From Escherichia phage EPIMAM01: a stretch of 64,000 nucleotides of DNA. Positions 478 through 34,079 of this stretch are shown here, piece after piece. The stretch lies in the sequence record PQ493298; one strand, 5' to 3'. A model generated the notes under the pieces. The model saw nothing but the letters and a program-made list of their open reading frames with translations, made no database searches and was not told where the DNA came from. Positions within the stretch are counted from its first letter, which is position 1, and each line of letters begins with the position of its first letter. The position numbers were made by a program, and so were the translations under genes.

Positions 478-2457
478 ATGACTTTATTATCTCCGGGCAT
501 TGAGCTCAAAGAAACTACGGTTCAAAGCACCGTGGTTAATAACTCTACTGGTACAGCAGCTTTGGCCGGTAAATTCCAGTGGGGTCCTGCTTTTCAAATT
601 AAACAGGTTACAAATGAAGTAGATTTAGTTAATACTTTTGGTCAACCTACAGCTGAAACTGCTGACTATTTTATGTCTGCAATGAATTTCTTACAATACG
701 GAAATGATTTGCGAGTTGTGCGTGCTGTCGATAGAGATACCGCTAAAAACTCATCTCCGATTGCCGGTAATATTGAATACACTATTTCTACCCCAGGTAG
801 TAACTACGCGGTTGGAGATAAAATCACGGTTAAGTATGTTTCAGAAGATGTTGAAACAGAATGTAAAGTTACCGAAGTAGATGCTGATGGAAAAATTAAG
901 AAAATTAATATTCCTACCGCAAAAATTATCGCTAAAGCGAAAGAAGTCGGTGAATACCCAGCATTAGGTTCTAACTGGACCGCGGAAATTTCTTCGTCTT
1001 CCTCTGGTTTAGCTGCAGTAATAACTCTTGGAAAAATTATTACTGATTCTGGTATTTTATTAGCTGAAATTGAAAATGCCGAAGCTGCTATGACAGCTGT
1101 TGACTTTCAGGCAAATCTCGAAAAATATGGAATTCCTGGAATAGTAGCTCTTTATCCAGGCGAGTTGGGCGATAAAATCGAAATTGAAATCGTATCTAAA
1201 GCTGACTACGCAAAAGGTGCTTCTGCATTACTTCCAATTTATCCAGGTGGCGGAACACGCGCATCTACTGCTAAAGCGGTGTTTGGATATGGACCGCAAA
1301 CTGATTCACAATACGCTATCATAGTTCGTCGCAATGATGCTATTGTTCAAAGCGTTGTTCTTTCAACGAAGCGTGGTGAAAAAGATATTTACGATAGTAA
1401 CATCTATATTGATGACTTTTTCGCAAAAGGTGGTTCAGAATATATTTTCGCAACTGCGCAAAACTGGCCAGAAGGCTTCTCTGGAATTTTAACTCTGTCT
1501 GGTGGATTATCATCAAATGCTGAAGTAACAGCAGGAGATTTGATGGAAGCTTGGGACTTCTTTGCTGACCGCGAATCTGTTGACGTTCAGTTGTTTATTG
1601 CGGGTTCTTGTGCCGGTGAATCTTTAGAAACAGCATCTACTGTCCAAAAACACGTCGTTTCAATTGGAGATGCTCGCCAAGATTGCTTAGTATTGTGCTC
1701 ACCACCGCGTGAAACTGTTGTTGGAATTCCTGTAACTCGTGCTGTTGATAACTTAGTCAATTGGAGAACCGCATCAGGTTCATACACTGATAATAACTTT
1801 AATATCAGTTCAACCTACGCAGCAATTGATGGTAACTACAAGTATCAGTATGACAAATATAATGATGTAAATCGTTGGGTTCCATTAGCAGCTGACATTG
1901 CTGGTTTATGCGCGAGAACTGATAACGTTTCTCAGACTTGGATGTCTCCAGCTGGTTATAATCGTGGCCAGATTCTTAACGTTATTAAACTTGCTATTGA
2001 AACTCGCCAAGCTCAGCGCGACCGTTTATATCAAGAAGCTATCAACCCAGTAACTGGTACAGGTGGTGATGGTTACGTATTATATGGTGATAAAACAGCT
2101 ACTTCTGTTCCTTCTCCATTTGATCGTATTAACGTTCGTCGTCTGTTTAATATGTTGAAAACGAATATCGGACGTAGTTCAAAATATCGTTTGTTCGAAT
2201 TAAACAACGCGTTTACTCGTTCATCATTCCGCACAGAAACTGCCCAATACTTACAGGGAATTAAAGCTCTCGGTGGAATTTATGAATATCGTGTAGTTTG
2301 CGATACAACAAATAACACTCCGTCAGTAATTGATAGAAATGAGTTTGTTGCAACATTCTACATTCAACCGGCTAGAAGCATTAACTACATTACCTTGAAC
2401 TTCGTAGCAACTGCTACTGGTGCAGATTTCGATGAGTTAACTGGTCTTGCAGGTTAA
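478..2457 (+). CDS. 18: tail sheath protein gp18
   Basis: 659 aa, same length as T4 gp18; position between 17 and 19; ATG start with AGAGGA-like SD. Confidence 0.95.
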   Translation: MTLLSPGIELKETTVQSTVVNNSTGTAALAGKFQWGPAFQIKQVTNEVDLVNTFGQPTAETADYFMSAMNFLQYGNDLRVVRAVDRDTAKNSSPIAGNIEYTISTPGSNYAVGDKITVKYVSEDVETECKVTEVDADGKIKKINIPTAKIIAKAKEVGEYPALGSNWTAEISSSSSGLAAVITLGKIITDSGILLAEIENAEAAMTAVDFQANLEKYGIPGIVALYPGELGDKIEIEIVSKADYAKGASALLPIYPGGGTRASTAKAVFGYGPQTDSQYAIIVRRNDAIVQSVVLSTKRGEKDIYDSNIYIDDFFAKGGSEYIFATAQNWPEGFSGILTLSGGLSSNAEVTAGDLMEAWDFFADRESVDVQLFIAGSCAGESLETASTVQKHVVSIGDARQDCLVLCSPPRETVVGIPVTRAVDNLVNWRTASGSYTDNNFNISSTYAAIDGNYKYQYDKYNDVNRWVPLAADIAGLCARTDNVSQTWMSPAGYNRGQILNVIKLAIETRQAQRDRLYQEAINPVTGTGGDGYVLYGDKTATSVPSPFDRINVRRLFNMLKTNIGRSSKYRLFELNNAFTRSSFRTETAQYLQGIKALGGIYEYRVVCDTTNNTPSVIDRNEFVATFYIQPARSINYITLNFVATATGADFDELTGLAG

Positions 2458-23974: not shown

Positions 23975-24017
23975 TGTCAGTAAGATTATTATAACACAGC
24001 ACGAGGGACTTGTAAAC
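23975..24017 (-). promoter_or_regulatory. sigma70-like early promoter (GTTTAC -35, TATAAT -10) upstream of 96-aa ORF
   Basis: Minus strand reads GTTTAC...(18 nt)...TATAAT; about 50 nt nearly identical to region upstream of alc. Confidence 0.6.
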
Positions 24018-26074
24018 TACATCTTGAACTTTTTAGACATTCCGTTGATGTTAACCAAAGAAGCCAAGATTTGAGAAACTTCGTTTTCCTCTTCTTTTGA
24101 TTCTTCTACAAGGAATTGATTAAACCCAGCCATTGGACGAACTTCACCAGTTTCCATTAGATGATCGCCATCATATACCGATTCTTCTAATTGTTCAGAA
24201 GGAGGAACGATTGTGCCTTCAATTAGATACTTGTTATAAGCAGTTTCTTTCATCATGTACGTGCTCACTTTATTAATCTTCAGCAAAATTCCACGCGGTA
24301 GAATAACTTCAGCTTCTGATGGAAATCCTGATAAATGACCTGGAACGATAACTTTGATTCGCTCAGCCCCTTTAATTACCATACCTACGCTAGCTTCAGC
24401 ATCTTCATTAGCATATGCAGAATGACTACCCATATGCATTAAATCTTCAGCATCAACAGAACCTTCTCCTTCACCAGAAAATACTGCGCCGGAATCATCT
24501 AGAGCCATATAGTTTTTACCATGCTCACCGAAGATATTTGGTTTAAGCGATGTTGATACGAAGTTCTTGAAATAGAACATTTTATTTTCAATATTATGGC
24601 GTAAAGTTTTAAAAGTAACTTCTTGACCACGATAAAGCGTAGTTCCCGGAGGAAGAACTGATCCTTTGGCGAATGCAGAATCCATTGTCTCGATGTGTTT
24701 AATAGCTCGTTCCATGTATTCTTCACGGGTAGAATCCGGTTTACCTAAAAGGAACGAGTTCATTTCAACATATGAATCTGCACAATAATCTTCAATTACA
24801 TCAGACTCAGCCTGAGTTAATCCTTTTGGAGTTACTTCGGTGCTTGCGTATTCATATGCCTGAGCAGCAGATTCATTAATCAATTTATAAATGCCATTCA
24901 TGACAAATTGAATAATAGCTACCTTTTCGTCTGGTGCGGCTTTAGAACCTTTAACTAAATCATTGATAATTTTCTTAATAACATCAAAGCTATTAGAAAT
25001 ATTAATGTCAGCGAGATCGCTCAAAATTTTATCGGTTTTATAATCAAAGAATTCTTTATTCTTTAAATATTCTTGAGAACCTTGATGTGTTATATCGCTC
25101 TGCAGTCTGATAGACGGATCACGTAAACGTGCATGGGCCAATGCAATATGATTTCGGAAGCTTTCTAGTTCATAATCGTTAGATTTAAAACGAGAAGCAC
25201 TTCTCATACCACCGATAGCTCCTTTGCCGAAGTTTGAACCAATCTGAATAACGCCAGAGTTCATTGGTCCTTCTGCTTTATATACCGGAACTTTAGATTC
25301 AAACTCTTGATATTTCTTAGCGGCGAAGCTATCACCCTGAAGTGAAGCATCGACAGTAGAATATTGAGCTTGTGCTGCTAATCGACGACTAATTTTAGTT
25401 TTCTGAATAACAGCTTGATCCGTGCGCTTATCATTTTCTAAAGCAATAGAAGCAGCTACAGCAACAGCTTTAGGAACAGCATTACCTGTTTTAACATCTA
25501 CATAAACATCACCAACCTTTGATTCAACTTTTGTGAATAACTCAGTTGAAATAGGAGGTACACCTGGAATGTCTTCTAAATTGGCATTTTTACGGTAAAC
25601 CATAATATATGCATACTTTTTATCGTAATCCCAGATTTCCTTTAAAAGAACATATCGACCTGCTCCTTTAGTACGTACTAAACGGTCAGCAATAACTTGC
25701 ATTTGACGAGCTGCGCCATTTGTTTTACTTTTTAGTACGCGGAATAGGCATGCATCAATTTTATACTGTTTCATTGTTTGAAGAGCAGTATCAAAAACAG
25801 CATTAATGACACCAATTGGATTTCCACCCAAGTTTTTAAGTTTAACTAATGATAGTTTCTCATTAACACCTATCATTACGATATGCATCATTTTATCACC
25901 TGGCTTAACGTTTTTATTTGTATCACCGCCAGAGGTGTATGTACAAAATCTAAATCCAGGAAGCACGCTTTCTTCACCGGCTTGAATAGCAAAAATTTGA
26001 GGTATTTTATGCTTAGGATTTAAGTTAACAACCGGCGCCGAAGCGCCGTCAAATAATTCTGTAATAAGTTCCAT
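24017..26074 (-). CDS. Alt-like ADP-ribosyltransferase paralog (685 aa)
   Basis: N-terminal MELITELFD shared with neighbour; YRG, STS and EAE motifs consistent with R-S-EXE ADP-ribosyltransferase. Confidence 0.85.
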   Translation of the reverse strand: MELITELFDGASAPVVNLNPKHKIPQIFAIQAGEESVLPGFRFCTYTSGGDTNKNVKPGDKMMHIVMIGVNEKLSLVKLKNLGGNPIGVINAVFDTALQTMKQYKIDACLFRVLKSKTNGAARQMQVIADRLVRTKGAGRYVLLKEIWDYDKKYAYIMVYRKNANLEDIPGVPPISTELFTKVESKVGDVYVDVKTGNAVPKAVAVAASIALENDKRTDQAVIQKTKISRRLAAQAQYSTVDASLQGDSFAAKKYQEFESKVPVYKAEGPMNSGVIQIGSNFGKGAIGGMRSASRFKSNDYELESFRNHIALAHARLRDPSIRLQSDITHQGSQEYLKNKEFFDYKTDKILSDLADINISNSFDVIKKIINDLVKGSKAAPDEKVAIIQFVMNGIYKLINESAAQAYEYASTEVTPKGLTQAESDVIEDYCADSYVEMNSFLLGKPDSTREEYMERAIKHIETMDSAFAKGSVLPPGTTLYRGQEVTFKTLRHNIENKMFYFKNFVSTSLKPNIFGEHGKNYMALDDSGAVFSGEGEGSVDAEDLMHMGSHSAYANEDAEASVGMVIKGAERIKVIVPGHLSGFPSEAEVILPRGILLKINKVSTYMMKETAYNKYLIEGTIVPPSEQLEESVYDGDHLMETGEVRPMAGFNQFLVEESKEEENEVSQILASLVNINGMSKKFKM

Positions 26075-26077
26075 GAT

Positions 26078-28174
26078 TTATCCTTGAACGAACTTGTAAG
26101 GCATGTTTGTAATATCTATGCAAGACGCAATAATTCCAAGAGATGATTCGACTTTCTGTTTAACATTTGATGAAACAAATGATGCAAAATCAACTCTGTC
26201 TTCTATTTCAATATCACCTGTCATTGCAACTACTTCACCAGTTTCCATTAGACGGTCACCGTCATAAATTACTGATTCGGTGAGTTCTTCCGTAGTCATA
26301 ACTTCAGCTTGAATGAGTTTTGTATTATTAGATGTTGTTCCGTCATTATTAGAAGCATCAGTTATTTTATTAACTTTGACCATCAATCCGCGTGGTAGAA
26401 TAACTTCAGCTTCTGTTGCTATTCCGAGACTTCCTGGATATACAACATTAACTTTATGAGCTCCATCAATTGCCCATCCTATTTGAACTTTAACGTATTC
26501 AGGATTTTCTTTATACGCTCTTATTTCATTTGGATTAATAGTTATTCCTTCTTCATTTTTATCAACTGTCAATTCATTACGAGCTTCTGGTTCTAAAAGA
26601 CCAATACCAGCATGTGTAATTCCAAAACGTCCAAAAATGATAGGAGTTAAAGAAGTAGATACAAAATTTCTGAAATAGAACACTTTATTTTTAACTAGTG
26701 CTTCGTATATAGGAGCAGTCATGCTTTGAGCACGATAAACTGTAATGCCTTCTGGTATACGGTCACCATTTTCAAAAGCTGAATCTAAGTTATTTATAGC
26801 AGATTCAATTTCTTTTTCACTCATTACATCATATCGTTCTGGATTGTAGCGTCCTAAAAGAAGATTATTGATGTCAGTATATCCTGAACCACAATACTCT
26901 CTAATGCCGCGCTTTTGTGATGGAGTATATTTAGAACCATCACGGGCAATAGTAATATCAATCATTGGACCTGCACCAATTCCAGAAAAACTATAAATCA
27001 TTCTTTTGAGGAATTTAGTTTTTGCTGCGTTCCAGGAAGTTTTAGTTATTTCTTCCCAGACTTCATCTGGCTGTCCTTTACGTGTTTTATTATGTTTATC
27101 AAGCCAATTATCTTTATATTCTTCAAAGAGTTGATTAACGGCTGCTGCGTATTTCTCTAAACATTTTATTGAAGTAGTTGGTTCATTTTTAATCGCATTA
27201 AGAATTACATCTTTAATCTTTTCAGAAACTTCATCAACCTCACTTTTTGAAAAGAATTTATAATCATAATGAAGTTCATTTGCGGTTCCTTCGGCAATAA
27301 TTTTTGCTGCCTTGGTTTTAGAAGCTAATGAATTAATTCCAAGTTTCATTTCTTCCGCTTCGGGAATTAAAGGAGCGGTAGCAGGTTTATTGAAATTAGC
27401 TGCGGTAGATTCATACTTCTGGAATAATTCACTTTCAAATCTAGAAGATTCCAATGACTGACTTTGCGCAATTGCTCTACGGGAAATTTTAACTTTAACG
27501 ATTACGGCTTGATCAGAACGTTTATCGTTTTCTTGCGCAATAGATGCTGCAATTGCCTCATTTTTAGTTACTTGAGCTCCAGTATCTTTATTGATATAAA
27601 CATCACCGACCTTCGATTCAACTTTAGTAAAGAGCTCGGTACTAATTTCCGGAACTCCTGGAATGTCTTCTAGCGATACATTTTTGCGATGTATAAGAAT
27701 ATATGCGTACTTTTTATCGTAATCCCAGAGTTCCTTAAGAAGGACGTATCTGCCACCTGAACGACTGCGGATAAGTCTATCAGCAATAAGTTGAATTTGT
27801 CGAGCTTGACCAGCAGTTTTAGACTTAAGAATACGGAGCATACAGGCATCAATTTTATACTGACGCATCGTTTGCATTGCAACTGTAAAAACTGAATTGA
27901 TATAATTAATTGGGCTTGGACCGAGACCTTTTAATTTAGCAATTGAACCTTTAGCAGTTAATGTAAAAGGAACAATATGCATCATTTTATCGCCCATCTT
28001 TAAATCGCGATTAGTATCACCTCCAGATGTGTAGGTACATAAACGAAAGCCTGGTTGTTCAATTGCGTCATCAACATGAACTGAAAAAATTTGCGGTATT
28101 TTCTTCTTTGGATTTAAGTTTGTAATCGGAAGAGTAGTATCTTCGTCAAATAATTCTGTAATGAGTTCCATCAT
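26078..28174 (-). CDS. alt: Alt-like ADP-ribosyltransferase paralog (698 aa)
   Basis: N-terminal MMELITELFD; YRAQ, STS and EAEVILPRG motifs; adjacent to gene 30 side. Confidence 0.85.
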   Translation of the reverse strand: MMELITELFDEDTTLPITNLNPKKKIPQIFSVHVDDAIEQPGFRLCTYTSGGDTNRDLKMGDKMMHIVPFTLTAKGSIAKLKGLGPSPINYINSVFTVAMQTMRQYKIDACMLRILKSKTAGQARQIQLIADRLIRSRSGGRYVLLKELWDYDKKYAYILIHRKNVSLEDIPGVPEISTELFTKVESKVGDVYINKDTGAQVTKNEAIAASIAQENDKRSDQAVIVKVKISRRAIAQSQSLESSRFESELFQKYESTAANFNKPATAPLIPEAEEMKLGINSLASKTKAAKIIAEGTANELHYDYKFFSKSEVDEVSEKIKDVILNAIKNEPTTSIKCLEKYAAAVNQLFEEYKDNWLDKHNKTRKGQPDEVWEEITKTSWNAAKTKFLKRMIYSFSGIGAGPMIDITIARDGSKYTPSQKRGIREYCGSGYTDINNLLLGRYNPERYDVMSEKEIESAINNLDSAFENGDRIPEGITVYRAQSMTAPIYEALVKNKVFYFRNFVSTSLTPIIFGRFGITHAGIGLLEPEARNELTVDKNEEGITINPNEIRAYKENPEYVKVQIGWAIDGAHKVNVVYPGSLGIATEAEVILPRGLMVKVNKITDASNNDGTTSNNTKLIQAEVMTTEELTESVIYDGDRLMETGEVVAMTGDIEIEDRVDFASFVSSNVKQKVESSLGIIASCIDITNMPYKFVQG

Positions 28175-28223: not shown

Positions 28224-28412
28224 TTAATAATCTATTGGTAAGAGAGTACGATATATTTCAAACTTTGGACCTTTTTCATAGGTATCAAATGTTTCTGTGA
28301 ATTTATTATAAGCATATGCATCTATAAATTCAATCATAATTTGTGATACAGAAGTAGAAACATCTCCACCTTCTTTTTGAGCCACGACAATTGTTTCTAA
28401 GTAAGCTTTCAT
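28224..28412 (-). CDS. hypothetical small protein
   Basis: 62 aa ORF overlapping ligase stop by 4 nt. Confidence 0.45.
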   Translation of the reverse strand: MKAYLETIVVAQKEGGDVSTSVSQIMIEFIDAYAYNKFTETFDTYEKGPKFEIYRTLLPIDY

Positions 28413-29869
28413 AGACCAGTTACCTCATGAAAATCACCAAATACATCCTCGAATGTATTAGCTTTAGTTTTATCTTCACGTAAACGAATCGCAATCGGAA
28501 GAAATAATTTAACGTAATCAGTGCGGCCATCAGATTTTAACCAACCATTGCATTCGCACTCTAGAATTTTTCCAATATAATAATTTTGGTTTTCCATAAT
28601 GCGAGTACGGTCAAGTTCATGCGATTTTACACCGGCTTTATCTTTTAAGCCTGAACCAGCATTTACTTTAATTTTTCCACACTCTGATTCAAGAATAAAT
28701 CCACCTGCTTTAGTAGGGTCTTTACGGTGAGGATAAATTCCTACAATTTTTAAATCAACATCAATTACTTCTTTAAATTTATATAGATTTTTTGAACGAG
28801 AATTTTCCCATAATCCATCAATATTTTTGAGAATAATACCTTCAAGACCTTGGTCAATATACTTTTTATAAATTACCTTAGCTTCATCTAGGTTATTTAC
28901 TATCTGGTTTTCAATTAAAATTACTTTATCATATCCTAATGTCATTTGTTCTAGTTTAGAAAAACGTACATCATATTTTAAACGAAACGCCGGAAGACCG
29001 TATATTTCTACCAACGGAACATAATCCCAGACCTGAAACTTCATGCATTTGGCTTCTTTTTCTGAAATAGTTCCCTTTAAAGATTTATTGGCGATTCCAT
29101 TAGAAGCAGTACGCGATTCAGCTACTTCGGAAAACTCTTTAGCTTTACTGATTTCAGGAGCATCAAAAAGAAAATCTAGGCCTTCTGGCTCCTTTTCAAC
29201 TTGCTCATGGTATACCAATTCGCCATCAATTAACACGCCTTCTGGATGAATCTGGCGAGCTTCAGCAGTCATTTTGATTAACTCTTCCTTAAGAAGATCT
29301 AATCCTAGATATTCATTACCAGCTCGTGATAAAAGACGAACATCATCTAATTCATCGCCTCGGACTTCAGCAAAACACCGAGCTCCATCTGCTTTTAACT
29401 GTGCAAAAGCTGGAAATTTGATATTCTTACTAATGCCTTTTTCATCATAAGAACTTGCCAGCATTTGAGGTTGTTCAGGAATTAAACCTGGCCAAACTTT
29501 ATTTGCGATAGATACTGAAGCACCGCATTCAAGATCTCGCATCATAACTCGACGCAAAACTTCAACATCATCCTTTTTACCATCAGTGATATATCCAGTT
29601 AATTCCTCAATTGCAGCATTTCCAGTCAATTTCCGAGTAGCTAACGTGAATTCAATGAAGTCAAGCATATCGGTAATAGTCAGCATTCCAAAACTCTGGG
29701 TAGCAATACCAGGTTTAGGCCATTTCTTGATATAATACTGTAACCCACGAGAATAAGTCAGACGATATACTCGTTTAAGCAATTCATTATCTTTATTCTT
29801 TTCAAGAATTGCTTGCTTCTGCTTAGTTGATCCAATAGATGCTATTTCATTCAGAATTTTAAGAATCAT
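28409..29869 (-). CDS. 30: ATP-dependent DNA ligase gp30
   Basis: 486 aa; adenylation motif KADG (AQLKADGARCF); matches remembered T4 ligase N-terminus. Confidence 0.93.
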   Translation of the reverse strand: MILKILNEIASIGSTKQKQAILEKNKDNELLKRVYRLTYSRGLQYYIKKWPKPGIATQSFGMLTITDMLDFIEFTLATRKLTGNAAIEELTGYITDGKKDDVEVLRRVMMRDLECGASVSIANKVWPGLIPEQPQMLASSYDEKGISKNIKFPAFAQLKADGARCFAEVRGDELDDVRLLSRAGNEYLGLDLLKEELIKMTAEARQIHPEGVLIDGELVYHEQVEKEPEGLDFLFDAPEISKAKEFSEVAESRTASNGIANKSLKGTISEKEAKCMKFQVWDYVPLVEIYGLPAFRLKYDVRFSKLEQMTLGYDKVILIENQIVNNLDEAKVIYKKYIDQGLEGIILKNIDGLWENSRSKNLYKFKEVIDVDLKIVGIYPHRKDPTKAGGFILESECGKIKVNAGSGLKDKAGVKSHELDRTRIMENQNYYIGKILECECNGWLKSDGRTDYVKLFLPIAIRLREDKTKANTFEDVFGDFHEVTGL

Positions 29870-30135
29870 TGTTCATCCTTCAGAGTTTGATTTACAGCTC
29901 TATTATAAATCAATTCATCATTAAGCTCAGTTAAAGACCTATGATATGTAGTTCTAACTTTATTTCCTTGCATCCAGTGCTTGACGTAAATGAAACCTTG
30001 CTCTACACATTTTTTAAAAATTCGTTCATCTTTTTGAGCTCGGAATTCTGGATTGCATCTAAAAAATTGATTTACGTGACCGTAATCACGTGTAGTATTA
30101 CCTTCATTTTCATAAATAGTGTGAACGACAAACAT
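29866..30135 (-). CDS. hypothetical protein (30.1 position)
   Basis: 89 aa ORF coupled to ligase start. Confidence 0.55.
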   Translation of the reverse strand: MFVVHTIYENEGNTTRDYGHVNQFFRCNPEFRAQKDERIFKKCVEQGFIYVKHWMQGNKVRTTYHRSLTELNDELIYNRAVNQTLKDEQ

Positions 30136-30998
30136 TAGAATGCTCCTTGGAAAATATTATCACCACTAGTAAATCTATTAAAATACCCTGCATCACCAGG
30201 CTTAGTATAACTCCACGTATGGAATGGATTCATATGATACGGGTGTGTATAATATGGATTATATGGATGTGTATAATATGGATTATACGGATTAAATCCA
30301 GGAGTTCTCCAGGTAGTGTTCCAAGGAAAAGAATCGTTTTTAACCATCTTCTCAATTAAATCTTTTATAGCTTTTTCACTATCAAAACTTTCTTTATTTT
30401 CCTTCGGCGAAAAAAGCTTATTTTCTACATCATTCCATGTATAAACTCGCTGGGCAGTTTTTGGAATATTGTCACGCTCTCCTCGAGCCATCCAATAAAC
30501 TGGAACATTTAATATTTCACTCGCATGATCGCAGTGGTGAGCGAGATCGTCAATATAACAAATTACGTTATATTTCTCTTTTGCCTTTTTGAATAACTCT
30601 TCTTTTGAAGAATCATGACCACACATCATTACTTCTGAGAAGGCACCAGGAAAAAGAGCATTCAAATTAAATTGACGATTCAACAGAGCGTCAATAGAAT
30701 CACCCAATGCTGTGACAGCTACAAAATTATAATCTTCTTTTAATTTGTTAATTACACACAGGGCATCTTTATATGGAGACAAGTAACGAATAAAATCTGA
30801 TCGATTGTATTTTTCAATTAGCTTGACACCAAGTTCTTCATCACAATTAAAGAGTTTACCTGGAGAAATAAATTTCTCATCTTGGATCATTTTTAAAATA
30901 TGTTCTAACGGAAGATTATATTTCTGAGCAAAATAAGGAAGACCTGATTGCCAGCTTAAACATACTCCATCAATATCAGTTAAAATAGTAGGCTTCAT
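30135..30998 (-). CDS. HAD-like hydrolase with Tyr/Pro-rich repetitive C-terminus (30.2 position)
   Basis: N-terminal ILTDIDGV resembles HAD motif I (DxDG); C-terminal NPYNPYYTHPY repeats. Confidence 0.65.
   Translation of the reverse strand: MKPTILTDIDGVCLSWQSGLPYFAQKYNLPLEHILKMIQDEKFISPGKLFNCDEELGVKLIEKYNRSDFIRYLSPYKDALCVINKLKEDYNFVAVTALGDSIDALLNRQFNLNALFPGAFSEVMMCGHDSSKEELFKKAKEKYNVICYIDDLAHHCDHASEILNVPVYWMARGERDNIPKTAQRVYTWNDVENKLFSPKENKESFDSEKAIKDLIEKMVKNDSFPWNTTWRTPGFNPYNPYYTHPYNPYYTHPYHMNPFHTWSYTKPGDAGYFNRFTSGDNIFQGAF
30244..30291 (-). repeat. two tandem 24-nt units (one mismatch) inside the HAD-like gene
   Basis: TGTGTATAATATGGATTATATGGA then TGTGTATAATATGGATTATACGGA on plus strand. 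Confidence 0.8.
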
Positions 30999-31459
30999 AG
31001 AGAGTCTCTTAATAGGTTTAACACATCAATAAATTCAGCTTCAGTTAGTATTGTATCATCTTTTGTTAGACCACTAGCCATGCTGTGCTTCAAAACTTTT
31101 CCTTTCGAGGCTTGTAATGCATCACGAAAGCCCCTGTTTTGGATCGCTGCTTCAAAATATGCATTTGTGTATAATTCTTTCCACGCTGAGGAGTATCTTG
31201 AAAACGGAACTCCAAGCCAGAAGAGGGTCCCACGGTCCTGAGCTCTAGCATAAGCTCGTCCAGCTTGTTGGGCGGCAAGCCCGGATAACCCAAATATACG
31301 ACGTTGCTGTTCAACATTTTTCACCTTACACCCTTGGAGGAATCCTTCGAGACCTCCAAATTGAATGCCATCCATAACGAAAGGCCATTGGGCGAAATTA
31401 CTTAATGCACATGATGGCCATTTAAAATTGCTTCTTATCTCTAGCTCAGACATTTTCAA
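30995..31459 (-). CDS. NADAR/YbiA-family (DUF1768-like) protein (30.3 position)
   Basis: LSNFAQWPF...DG...EGFLQGCK resembles remembered E. coli YbiA motif FSNFAAWPI...DG...EHYFQAQKF. Confidence 0.6.
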   Translation of the reverse strand: MKMSELEIRSNFKWPSCALSNFAQWPFVMDGIQFGGLEGFLQGCKVKNVEQQRRIFGLSGLAAQQAGRAYARAQDRGTLFWLGVPFSRYSSAWKELYTNAYFEAAIQNRGFRDALQASKGKVLKHSMASGLTKDDTILTEAEFIDVLNLLRDSL

Positions 31460-31652
31460 TACTTATAATTTCAACATCAGCCCAATGACCATAGCAAGGA
31501 AGACGAAATTCAACTGGCCAGTTAGGGTCCTTTTCTAATATAATAGACTGAACTTGTGGCTCTTCATATTCATCGGTATACGGACCTTTATACGTTACTT
31601 TATATGTGACCTTAATGTACTTAATTCCAAAAATCTTATTAATTATATTCAT
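31446..31652 (-). CDS. hypothetical protein
   Basis: 68 aa ORF in co-oriented early cluster. Confidence 0.45.
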   Translation of the reverse strand: MNIINKIFGIKYIKVTYKVTYKGPYTDEYEEPQVQSIILEKDPNWPVEFRLPCYGHWADVEIISIENV

Positions 31653-31846
31653 ACTAATTCCTTTAATCCGTAAATAGGAGATAATTCATCACCCATACGA
31701 AGGTCTTCATTTCCATCTACCCAGGAAACAATATAAGCCTCTTTTATTTGAATACCACTCCATTTAAATGGAGGTAGAACCTTAGAAATTAATCCAGGTA
31801 TACCAACTCCCTTTAATTCAACAGTTTGACCTAAAAAGAATTTCAT
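31649..31846 (-). CDS. hypothetical protein
   Basis: 65 aa ORF with 4-nt overlaps to neighbours. Confidence 0.45.
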   Translation of the reverse strand: MKFFLGQTVELKGVGIPGLISKVLPPFKWSGIQIKEAYIVSWVDGNEDLRMGDELSPIYGLKELV

Positions 31847-32133
31847 TAGAACCTCATCTGAAAGCCATGCGATTTAACATTACCGCCGCCAATATCAGAA
31901 ATATTAATTTCACGCGCAATTGAAGGGTCAATGTCAATTTCACGATTGAGTTTAGTGATAGCTAAAGTATCGCGCCCATTTACAGTACGGAACTCTAAAG
32001 GACATACTACATTAACGTAGTTTTTAATCGATTCACTGGTAGGTTGCAAATGAGCAGGAAGGTCTTTAGGTGCCTTTGAGAAAACCACTTCACAGAAATT
32101 TTTGCGGGTATCAAAATAAGTAGTCATAAACAT
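31846..32133 (-). CDS. hypothetical protein
   Basis: 95 aa ORF. Confidence 0.5.
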   Translation of the reverse strand: MFMTTYFDTRKNFCEVVFSKAPKDLPAHLQPTSESIKNYVNVVCPLEFRTVNGRDTLAITKLNREIDIDPSIAREINISDIGGGNVKSHGFQMRF

Positions 32134-32150
32134 AGTATTTTCCTCAGTAA

Positions 32151-32164
32151 GGGGCCGAAGCCCC
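32151..32164. terminator. stem-loop GGGGCC-GAAG-CCCC
   Basis: Perfect inverted repeat in intergenic gap. Confidence 0.55.
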
Positions 32165-32174
32165 TCATTTTATT

Positions 32175-32540
32175 TTAAATATCAAATTCGTTAAGAACTA
32201 CATCAAAGATTGCTTCAAGATGCTCAGGTTTAGCTCTGTTACTCAGAATATGACGAATCCAAGTTTTAACCAGAAGCTTGCGATTAACGCCATTCCAGCA
32301 AGGATGAGTCCCTAAATCGCGTTGACGAAAATCATCATCCAAAGCGATTTTGAAGTTGGAACCTTCCATTGTGATTGAAACCGTGATGCCATTTTCAAAT
32401 CGCATATAAACGTAGTTAGGAGTCATATACTGTTCAATTTCGCATACTGATCCATTTTGATGTTTCCAAAGGCAAATAGTATCAATAGAACCTGCAATAC
32501 CATTAGAAACATATTTACGTTCAAAGTTGATGTAGTTCAT
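32175..32540 (-). CDS. hypothetical protein
   Basis: 121 aa ORF. Confidence 0.55.
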   Translation of the reverse strand: MNYINFERKYVSNGIAGSIDTICLWKHQNGSVCEIEQYMTPNYVYMRFENGITVSITMEGSNFKIALDDDFRQRDLGTHPCWNGVNRKLLVKTWIRHILSNRAKPEHLEAIFDVVLNEFDI

Positions 32541-32608
32541 TTTTATTCTCCGAGATGTTTAATTGCGGTACAGGTATATAATATCATATCCTGTACCAAA
32601 GTAAACAA

Positions 32609-32941
32609 TTATTTTACTACTTTCCAGTGCTGCATGTCAAGTTTACCAACTTTTTTCATCTTCTCAATTAAGCGTTCGGCGCGTTGGCGAGCTGTAACAT
32701 AATACCATTCACCCAATTCATTTTGTTCAATTTTTCCAACGATTACTGTGTTCAATTCATAAATCCAACCAGTAAAGAAATTATGAACTTGAATTGTAAA
32801 GGTGAAATCTGTTCCCATACCTTCTGTTGTTTCTACTTCAATAATATTACCTTCAACTGCCATTAAGAACCACATAGTTTCATCATATTTACCATTGAAG
32901 CATTTAGTTTTAACTGTAGCGTTCAGATTAATCGTTTTCAT
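32609..32941 (-). CDS. hypothetical protein
   Basis: 110 aa ORF. Confidence 0.55.
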   Translation of the reverse strand: MKTINLNATVKTKCFNGKYDETMWFLMAVEGNIIEVETTEGMGTDFTFTIQVHNFFTGWIYELNTVIVGKIEQNELGEWYYVTARQRAERLIEKMKKVGKLDMQHWKVVK

Positions 32942-33028
32942 TTTATTCTCCTTTGTTTGTGTAAGATAATACTATCACAAAGGAACCATACTGTAAACAA
33001 CTTTGTGCAATCTTTGGAAAATAAAAAA

Positions 33029-33046
33029 GGACTCCCGAAGGAGTCC
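33029..33046. terminator. stem-loop GGACTCC-CGAA-GGAGTCC
   Basis: Perfect 7-bp stem preceded by A-run. Confidence 0.6.
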
Positions 33047-33051
33047 TCAAC

Positions 33052-33228
33052 TTATGCTTTCTGCTTACCAAAACGAGAAGCATCATCTCGAAGAACCGCA
33101 CGTGCTCGGCGCATGATCTTCTCAACAGTTTGATTGATACGAGAGTTCGACCCACGCTTGTAACCAGCGCGTTTAGAATCACCAACTTTCTTTTCAACTG
33201 CTTTCTTTGCTTTAGCTTGTTTTGCCAT
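33052..33228 (-). CDS. small lysine/arginine-rich protein
   Basis: 58 aa from internal ATG (MAKQAKAKK...); ORF-track start further upstream judged less likely. Confidence 0.45.
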   Translation of the reverse strand: MAKQAKAKKAVEKKVGDSKRAGYKRGSNSRINQTVEKIMRRARAVLRDDASRFGKQKA

Positions 33229-33347
33229 TATAAATTCTCTTTTAAATGAAAATGCAGGACTTATTGGCATTGCCTGCGAAAGCCCTCAAGGGGTACTTAG
33301 GTTTTGAATATTTACCGACAGGATAACCATAAACCTCGTCAACATAA

Positions 33348-33596
33348 TTACTTCAGTGTTACCACAAAGTGACGAACTGCTTTTCGTGCGGCAGAAGCCA
33401 GAGGCTTAGCATATTTAAGTTCATCTTTTTCCTGAAGCTCAGCAGCTAATGCAGTTTGAGCAGGATTCAGATGTTTGAAATAACGCAGGATTTCAAGAGC
33501 TTCGGCTTCAACATCAATAGATGCGCCATAGTTTTCGTGACCATTATTCCATGCGTTTCGTTGCAGTTCAAGAGCGTGTTGTAATTGTTTAATCAT
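33348..33596 (-). CDS. rIII: rIII lysis-inhibition accessory protein
   Basis: 82 aa, same as T4 rIII; position immediately downstream of gene 31. Confidence 0.8.
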   Translation of the reverse strand: MIKQLQHALELQRNAWNNGHENYGASIDVEAEALEILRYFKHLNPAQTALAAELQEKDELKYAKPLASAARKAVRHFVVTLK

Positions 33597-33743
33597 TTAA
33601 AAATTCTCGTTAGAGATTAAAACTCGGTAGTCACGTTCTTCTGAATTTCATCTTCTTTCGACAGATCTCTCAGTTGTAGACTACCACATAGAATTGTTCG
33701 GTTAACTTATTATTCCGACACCCAATTCATATTATTATTTATA

Positions 33744-34079
33744 TCACTTATAAAGACACGGAATAGCTTTATAGTGACAGGTAACGAATTTTTGTTTAAT
33801 TTCTTTTGGCTGCTTAAGACCCAGAGCTACAAAAGGATGCGGAACGTTTCGAATTTGACCAACTGGAAGAGAAGTCAAATCACCAACTTCACAGAAACCT
33901 TCAGGAACATCAGGACCAACAGAGTGAACTACACACAGTTCAGGAACTTCACCTTGAACACGTTTACCGATAATAAGTCCTGATTCTGTAACTTCTTCAT
34001 CACCGGCTTGTGCAGGTTCAGAAACTAAAATAACATATTCACCGACAGCACGAATTGGTAGCTGTTGTACTTCAGACAT
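33744..34079 (-). CDS. 31: co-chaperonin gp31 (GroES analogue)
   Basis: 111 aa; matches remembered T4 gp31. Confidence 0.92.

Follow-up and report, generated by a model that had tools for sequence, protein, structure and literature searches.

The minus-strand gene at positions 30995..31453 of the 64,000-nucleotide stretch analysed here (Escherichia phage EPIMAM01, record PQ493298; hereafter the window) most probably encodes an ortholog of AdfN, the product of phage T4 gene 30.3, that would reverse the DarT1-catalysed ADP-ribosylation of guanine in phage DNA and thereby counter the DarTG1 defence, a reading to which we assign a probability of about 93% from sequence comparison and analogy with the T4 protein. 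That function is already published for T4 gene 30.3, and the gene belongs to a known system, whose in vitro activity was described in 2024 (PMC11125620) and whose in vivo anti-DarTG1 role was described in 2025 (PMC11825919). Upon infection of a DarTG1-carrying host, DarT1 would ADP-ribosylate guanine at N2 in phage DNA, resulting in a block of replication. AdfN would bind the ADP-ribose, with Lys43 contacting the phosphates and Glu36 together with His123 of the last beta-strand contacting the distal ribose, and would hydrolyse the N-glycosidic bond with the release of unmodified guanine and free ADP-ribose, upon which replication would resume. These presumed residue roles are transferred from the crystal structure of a Phytophthora NADAR with ADP-ribose. 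AdfN would act as an orphan type-IV-like antitoxin without binding the toxin, and its specificity for guanine-ADP-ribose would leave it without action against DarTG2, which modifies thymidine.

The chief value of the assignment lies in annotation, as the gene is called a hypothetical protein in nearly all T4-like records among the matches listed; one record starts adfN at an internal codon and another omits it, while the 152-aa ORF is intact in both. Practically, the intact adfN predicts resistance of this phage to DarTG1-carrying hosts, which is useful for estimating which hosts therapeutic T4-like phages can infect.

Gene boundaries and genomic neighbourhood

The ORF called mechanically on the minus strand at 30995..31459, whose translation holds ALSNFAQWPFVMDGIQFGGLEGFLQGCK, is a real gene far beyond chance, because it matches Pfam family PF08010 (Phage_30_3, 'Bacteriophage protein GP30.3') with an E-value of 6.4e-69 (230.5 bits, the gathering score being 36, with all 138 profile positions covered) and is present by blastn in 732 phage records. 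These records are almost all of T4-like phages of Escherichia, Shigella, Yersinia, Salmonella and Citrobacter, and the protein also matches PHROG 652. It is identical to T4 gp30.3 (NP_049816) at 147 of 152 residues (97%) with an equal length of 152 aa, and the gene is assigned as the ortholog of T4 30.3/adfN ('anti-DarT factor NADAR'). The five differences from T4, given with the window residue first, are K11R, A67S, S89P, R106K and M125I, the last located two residues past His123; all five are conservative or surface-type substitutions at non-catalytic positions. The gene and its neighbourhood comprise the following features:

24017..26074, same strand as adfN: Alt paralog 1
26078..28174, same strand as adfN: Alt paralog 2, in tandem with paralog 1
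28409..29869: DNA ligase, gene 30, with 97.7% protein identity to T4 gp30
30995..31453, minus strand: adfN (T4 gene 30.3 ortholog), 152 aa, stand-alone NADAR-core predicted DNA ADP-ribosylglycohydrolase, stop codon at 30995..30997
30995..30998, minus strand: ATGA overlap of the adfN stop codon with the start codon of gene 30.2
31446..31453, minus strand: 8-nt overlap of 30.4 and adfN, with the 30.4 stop codon TGA at 31446..31448 and the adfN start codon ATG
31454..31459, minus strand: TTG AAA codons of the mechanical ORF call, within the 3' end of gene 30.4

Translation of adfN almost certainly begins with the ATG at 31453 and yields 152 aa, not with the TTG at 31459, which would yield 154 aa. 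This ATG, two codons 3' of the TTG, is kept in all nine loci compared and is the annotated start of 30.3 in T4, whereas the TTG is replaced in Mosigvirus and Dhakavirus orthologs by TTA or TCA, neither of them a start codon. Because the ATG is invariant and T4-annotated and the TTG is not conserved, the gene is given here as 152 aa at 30995..31453, and the TTG AAA codons probably lie outside the translated AdfN. The earlier note had reported a 154-aa product at 30995-31459, of which the ORF itself stands, while its start and length need this six-base correction. Both overlaps, that of 30.4 with adfN and that of adfN with 30.2, are annotated likewise in the records of T4 and of the Tequatrovirus, Mosigvirus and Dhakavirus phages that were retrieved, and the 4-nt adfN/30.2 overlap recurs in other phage and metagenome loci with the exception of contig L012, in which a 136-aa gene separates adfN from 30.2.

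Collinearity with T4 extends from alt.1 to 30.8 at approximately 95% nucleotide identity, and the order of genes is that of T4, namely alt, alt.1, 30, 30.1, 30.2, 30.3, 30.4, 30.5, 30.6, 30.7 and 30.8. The genes flanking adfN are the orthologs of T4 30.4 and 30.2 and are 91% identical to their T4 counterparts. The placement of the gene in the gene 30 neighbourhood by the earlier note is borne out by the ligase at 28409..29869, and the Alt transferases it had located 3 kb away are indeed present as the two tandem paralogs, both full-length and at 2.8-7 kb from adfN. An out-of-frame ORF annotated in T4 as 30.3' (31090..31317, minus strand) was considered as a second product of the locus and rejected. 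It carries no sign of a conserved coding frame, because an in-frame stop interrupts it in three Mosigvirus loci and because the variability of adfN at third codon positions is equal within the 30.3' overlap (41 of 76) and outside it (41 of 77). A scan of 29800..33800 for promoters and terminators yielded 18 sites against 14.1 +/- 3.7 in shuffled sequence, a number not above expectation. This interval includes one near-consensus site on the minus strand (32640..32611) as well as a hairpin resembling a terminator (33048..33027); both are compatible with a transcription unit running from 30.7 to 30 and prove nothing.

NADAR membership and active-site residues

Searches with the single protein gave no link to NADARs: against Pfam at E<=1 only PF08010 was found and not the NADAR family PF08719, against NCBIfam at E<=10 no match was obtained, and phmmer against PDB sequences at E<=10 likewise returned none, so that the link had to be sought by profiles and structure. 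When 1.84 billion representatives were searched with a profile, 1450 clusters were obtained, from which a diverse alignment (A2) could be built, comprising 43 family sequences with 29-87% identity to the query. When the A2 profile was used in hmmsearch against PDB sequences, the top match was E. coli YbiA (2B3W, E 8.3e-4). Alignment by hhalign of the profile of these 43 members with E. coli YbiA gave a probability of 95.2% (E 2.5e-8), and alignment with a 31-member YbiA-family alignment gave 97.5% (E 7.8e-12) over 141 columns, nearly the whole domain; the latter alignment was seeded with the full-length ybiA of MG1655, a 56-aa YbiA fragment used as seed having recovered only short fragments. 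Individually, 19 of the 43 family members match PF08719, with a best E-value of 1.1e-4 and below the gathering score, and, in the reverse direction, precomputed PF08010 matches are on record for some YbiA relatives. The wider family includes fusions to LRR_5, Lgt, GDSL lipase and alpha/beta-hydrolase domains. These fusions were set aside as a functional clue, as they give no coherent signal and some may be gene-calling artefacts.

The AlphaFold model of the protein (pLDDT 82.6, pTM 0.81) has the YbiA-like alpha-helical core flanked by small beta-sheets that characterizes the NADAR fold, and Foldseek with this model retrieved 2B3W, 8BAU and 8BAT as its top three matches, with all others at E>3. 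Membership of the predicted protein in the NADAR superfamily is confirmed by these profile and model comparisons, in accordance with De Souza and Aravind, who, as cited in PMC11543638 and PMC11125620, placed gp30.3 proteins among NADARs. The designation as a NADAR/YbiA-like protein in the earlier note thus holds on the family profile, the fold and the retained catalytic Glu and Lys. The motif it quoted is present in the translation as ALSNFAQWPFVMDGIQFGGLEGFLQGCK, and the YbiA motif it gave for comparison agrees with the real E. coli protein, FSNFAAWPIKVDGKTWPTSEHYFQAQKF. It had further proposed a profile search against NADAR/DUF1768, with the lack of a significant match to be read as refutation. 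The outcome is divided, since the single protein does not match PF08719 while the family profile does match NADAR/YbiA; as PF08719 is not found at E<=1, such a reading of a plain Pfam scan would misfire.

The residues and the structural element that bear on activity are encoded as follows:

31346..31348, minus strand: Glu36 codon GAA, predicted catalytic Glu, equal to E36 of AdfN(T4) and aligned with YbiA E48 (SEHYFQAQK)
31325..31327, minus strand: Lys43 codon AAG, predicted phosphate-coordinating catalytic Lys, aligned with YbiA K55
31085..31087, minus strand: His123 codon CAC, in the last beta-strand (model strand 120-124)
30998..31042, minus strand: C-terminal alpha-helix, residues 138-152 (model helix 138-151), with the C-terminus identical to T4

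Glu36 and Lys43 sit in an E..FQ..K motif in the hhalign comparison with YbiA. Glu36 is invariant in alignments A1 and A2 (43 sequences), and Lys43 is invariant in A1 and occurs in 90% or more of the sequences of A2; a loss of these catalytic positions on alignment, named by the earlier note as a refutation of the assignment, is hence not what the alignments reveal. The equivalent residues are E88/K95 in the E. coli C7 NADAR and E43/K50 in the Phytophthora NADAR. In the T4 protein, the E36A exchange abolishes activity in vitro and impairs function in vivo, and K43A allows partial rescue only (PMC11825919). The third position of interest lies in the last strand, where the literature describes His in phage NADARs, Glu in the YbiA family and Asp in DarG1 (PMC11543638; PMC11125620; PMC12945103). 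His123 is invariant in all 43 aligned family members. On the strength of this literature it is taken as the counterpart of the YbiA Glu, with the register of the alignment uncertain by one position, as hhalign sets His123 opposite YbiA H126, one residue past E125 and beside a gap.

Function of the T4 ortholog and competing explanations

Gene 30.3 was renamed adfN by Johannesman, Awasthi, Carlson and LeRoux (Nat Commun 2025, PMC11825919), who traced resistance to DarTG1 to this gene by means of T2 x RB69 and T4 x RB69 chimeras. In the same study, ectopic AdfN(T4) fully rescued RB69 on DarTG1 hosts and Delta-adfN derivatives of T4 and T2 formed no plaques on such hosts, showing that T-even resistance to DarTG1 requires AdfN(T4) and that AdfN(T4) suffices for it. 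Purified AdfN(T4), and not its E36A variant, strips ADP-ribose from DarT1-modified DNA in dot-blot assays; the protein does not bind DarT1 and has no effect on DarTG2 (thymidine), being specific to DarTG1 (guanine) (PMC11825919). Hydrolysis of guanosine-ADPr by T4 gp30.3 was also measured in vitro (Toxins 2024, PMC11125620), the T4 NADAR was found inactive on cytidine-ADPr (Toxins 2026, PMC12945103), and on RNA G-ADPr it is weaker than the E. coli C7 NADAR (NAR 2025). The guanine N2 linkage of DarT1 ADP-ribosylation is tabulated in PMC12945103, where phage NADAR is described as 'solely this core domain'. A transposon screen of T4 (HIDEN-SEQ) scored 30.3/adfN as a conditionally essential gene in the presence of DarTG1 (10.1101/2025.11.20.689424); on plain K-12 the gene can be dispensed with (PMC11825919; 10.1101/2025.11.20.689424). 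Removal of ADP-ribose from guanine in DNA, as suggested in the earlier note, is thus demonstrated for a protein 97% identical to that of the window, to which the activity is carried over by identity. Its suggestion of a counter-defence against DarTG-like systems is likewise supported by the T4 and T2 knockouts and the rescue of RB69, in a narrower form that covers DarTG1 only and not DarTG2. Given 97% identity and intact key residues, we infer that the window allele behaves as T4 AdfN.

A different role was also raised by the earlier note, that of a regulator of ADP-ribosylation in view of the nearby Alt transferases. In such a role, AdfN would tune the ADP-ribosylation carried out by the phage itself, reversing protein (or RNA-linked) marks set by the two Alt enzymes or by ModA/ModB. 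The two full-length Alt paralogs on the same strand, 2.8-7 kb away, and the order Alt - ligase - 30.1 - 30.2 - 30.3 kept in distant T4-like contigs would suit such a regulator, but this order reflects general T4-like collinearity and not a specific linkage. Alt-type enzymes ADP-ribosylate arginine side chains of proteins. The assays of T4 NADAR in the cited literature were all carried out on nucleic-acid bases, with activity on G-ADPr and inactivity on C-ADPr, it is inactive in vivo against T-ADPr, and the Delta-adfN phenotype is seen on DarTG1 hosts only, with the gene dispensable on plain K-12. With the proximity of Alt accounted for by collinearity and the phenotype being DarTG1-specific, regulation of Alt ADP-ribosylation is unsupported and we regard it as extremely unlikely. 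The fact that E. coli YbiA is the best match in both structure and sequence would point to a metabolic N-glycosidase of the YbiA type, clearing intermediates of the riboflavin pathway or other small ribosylated molecules in the infected cell, all the more as bacterial and plant NADARs including YbiA have N-glycosidase activity on riboflavin intermediates (PMC11543638). However, the signature Glu of that group (VEHT, E125, invariant in alignment A3) is not conserved, Lys122 standing opposite to it and being variable across the phage family, the downstream D..YWG.GG motif is absent or gapped in the phage family, and the T4 ortholog combines DNA G-ADPr hydrolase activity with a defence-specific phenotype, so that a metabolic role receives hardly any credence. 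YbiA, too, hydrolyses G-ADPr in vitro (PMC11125620).

Another explanation concerns the allele rather than the family, since the gene could be decayed or inactive and confer no protection against DarTG1, as in RB69, where a frameshift removes the last 15 residues, the phage is DarTG1-sensitive and the truncation lowers activity (PMC11825919). Shortened versions are common among close relatives, with clusters of 89-126 aa, exemplified by SV76 (109 aa) and UGJNEcP4 (91 aa). Against this, the 152-aa frame of the window is intact, the C-terminus is as in T4, including the helix that is missing from the RB69 allele, and every invariant residue of the family is present, leaving a decayed allele with an almost negligible probability. 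The AdfN(T4)-like hydrolase active against DarTG1 is hence retained as the reading of the window gene.

A simple mechanism in which AdfN acts as a free enzyme is nevertheless incomplete. This follows from the inability of T4 gp30.3 to serve as an antitoxin or neutralise DarT1 in uninfected E. coli (PMC11125620), taken together with the finding that AdfN(T4) is fully active only in T-even infections and that non-T-even phages are weakly rescued (PMC11825919), and the authors of the latter study propose an additional T-even factor. A specificity for hmC or glucosyl-hmC DNA can be dismissed as this factor, as T4-GT7 with its unmodified DNA is still protected by adfN (PMC11825919). The product of gene 30.2, approximately 280 aa in length with an N-terminal HAD-type DxDGV motif and without any Pfam match, was considered as a candidate partner. 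Even in distant T4-like contigs, whose AdfN is 58-69% identical, the gene lies directly 3' of adfN and its start codon overlaps the adfN stop codon, but this adjacency may be part of the collinearity of T4-like genomes, in which ligase, 30.1 and Alt are equally syntenic. In contig L012, moreover, adfN and 30.2 are separated by another gene, and the HIDEN-SEQ text names adfN for DarTG1 with no mention of 30.2 (10.1101/2025.11.20.689424), so that the 30.2 product is very unlikely to be the T-even factor. Gene 30.4 was discarded as a conserved partner of adfN, since in distant T4-like contigs a 30.5-like gene sits upstream instead.

Comparison with known systems

E. coli YbiA (2B3W; PF08719) shares approximately 19% identity with the window AdfN and its family carries a D..YWG.GG..G.N motif after the last strand, which the phage family lacks. 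YbiA also functions in the clearance of riboflavin intermediates (PMC11543638) and in C-ADPr removal (PMC12945103), whereas the T4 NADAR does not remove C-ADPr. The DarG1/BC4488 NADAR antitoxins (E. coli C7; Geobacter lovleyi, 8BAT) differ by an N-terminal extension of beta-sheets and a helix that forms an electropositive ssDNA channel. This extension is absent from the window protein, which consists of the 152-aa core only, with the first strand of the model starting at residue 3; the alignment with 8BAT covers no more than 122 of its 219 residues. DarG1 has a catalytic Asp at the position of the AdfN His and is encoded beside the DarT1 toxin gene, whereas adfN of the window is flanked by the 30.4 and 30.2 orthologs and has no DarT neighbour. 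Unlike DarG1 antitoxins, AdfN(T4) cannot neutralise DarT1 in uninfected cells.

Several further phage proteins likewise serve as counter-defences against DarTG, namely AdfA (gp61.2), AdfN(Bas32), AdfN(Bas60) and AdfM (Tk.4 macrodomain). [quoted passage not shown] AdfA, unlike AdfN, is non-catalytic and binds DarT1, and AdfM is a macrodomain directed against DarTG2 (thymidine), whereas AdfN is directed against guanine modification. The closest likeness of the window gene is to adfN of T4 itself, to which it corresponds in 97% protein identity, the length of 152 aa, the position between 30.4 and 30.2 with identical overlaps, the E36/K43/H123 residues and the C-terminal helix. The two loci differ in the second full-length Alt paralog and in a 10-aa repeat expansion in gp30.2, both of which are features of the window.

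The NFKWPSCAL segment of AdfN

Within AdfN, the NADAR protein orthologous to the T4 gene 30.3 product, one short segment combines sequence conservation with low model confidence:
31403..31429, minus strand, AdfN residues 9-17 (NFKWPSCAL), directly N-terminal to the SNF motif

This segment is near-invariant in the family (W12, P13, S14, A16 and L17), and residues 9-17 are the only ones with pLDDT values below 50 in the AlphaFold model of AdfN. They may constitute a flexible substrate-binding loop, which would become ordered upon binding of DNA or ADP-ribose.

Annotation, truncation and relatives of adfN

Annotation of adfN is inconsistent across public records, as exemplified by two of the fetched phage loci, in both of which the complete 152-aa ORF is intact:
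PhAPEC2 (L004), 1207..1665 of the locus, annotated as a 126-aa product with an internal start
IME341 (L009), 1204..1662 of the locus, no gene annotated

Among the fetched records, the remark 'Member of NADAR and 30.3 superfamilies' is found solely in that of fFiEco06.

In sequenced T4-like phages, several genes closely related to adfN are shortened, such as those of SV76 (P0008, 109 aa), UGJNEcP4 (P0015, 91 aa) and NR1 (P0016, 107 aa), or are fused with pieces of adjacent genes, with co-matches to PF11097, PF06919 and PF06019 in such truncated or fused proteins. These forms suggest recurrent inactivation by frameshift, resembling that of the frameshifted RB69 allele. Some of them may also reflect sequencing errors.

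An additional out-of-frame ORF lies inside adfN and is the counterpart of T4 gene 30.3', annotated there as 'internal translation in a different reading frame':
31090..31317, minus strand, 30.3'-type ORF of 75 aa in the +1 frame of adfN

This frame runs uninterrupted in the window, in T4, in one Tequatrovirus locus and in three Dhakavirus loci, but three Mosigvirus loci have a stop codon within it. At third codon positions, adfN varies to an equal degree within the overlap (41/76) and beyond it (41/77), and 30.3' is unlikely to be a conserved coding frame.

The gp30.3-type NADAR family extends far beyond T4-like phages, comprising 1450 clusters (50% identity, E<=1e-3). In metagenome proteins, this domain occurs in tandem copies or fused to BspA-type LRR_5 repeats, prolipoprotein diacylglyceryl transferase (Lgt), GDSL lipase or alpha/beta-hydrolase (tandem or fused examples P0092, P0128, P0098, P0053, P0083 and P0024), and some of these fusions may be gene-calling artefacts.

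Gene 30.2 and the tandem Alt paralogs

Gene 30.2 is the downstream neighbor of adfN:
30135..30998, minus strand, gene 30.2, 287-aa product

The N-terminus of gp30.2 carries a HAD-phosphatase-type motif, MKPTILTDIDGV, and some public records label the gene as phosphatase or 5'-nucleotidase. No Pfam match was obtained at E<=1, and PHROG returned only a weak match to polynucleotide kinase (E 1.3e-3). Divergence within the protein is greatest in the Pro/Tyr/His-rich C-terminal tail, which contains one additional 10-aa NPYYTHPY-type repeat as compared to T4.

Two Alt-type ADP-ribosyltransferases are encoded in tandem:
24017..26074, minus strand, first copy, 685 aa, 43% identity to T4 Alt
26078..28174, minus strand, second copy, 698 aa, 70% identity to T4 Alt

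Both are full-length and share 41% identity with each other. T4 contains one alt gene with the short alt.-1 and alt.-2 as leftovers of an old duplication, and hence EPIMAM01, unlike T4, has retained both copies intact.
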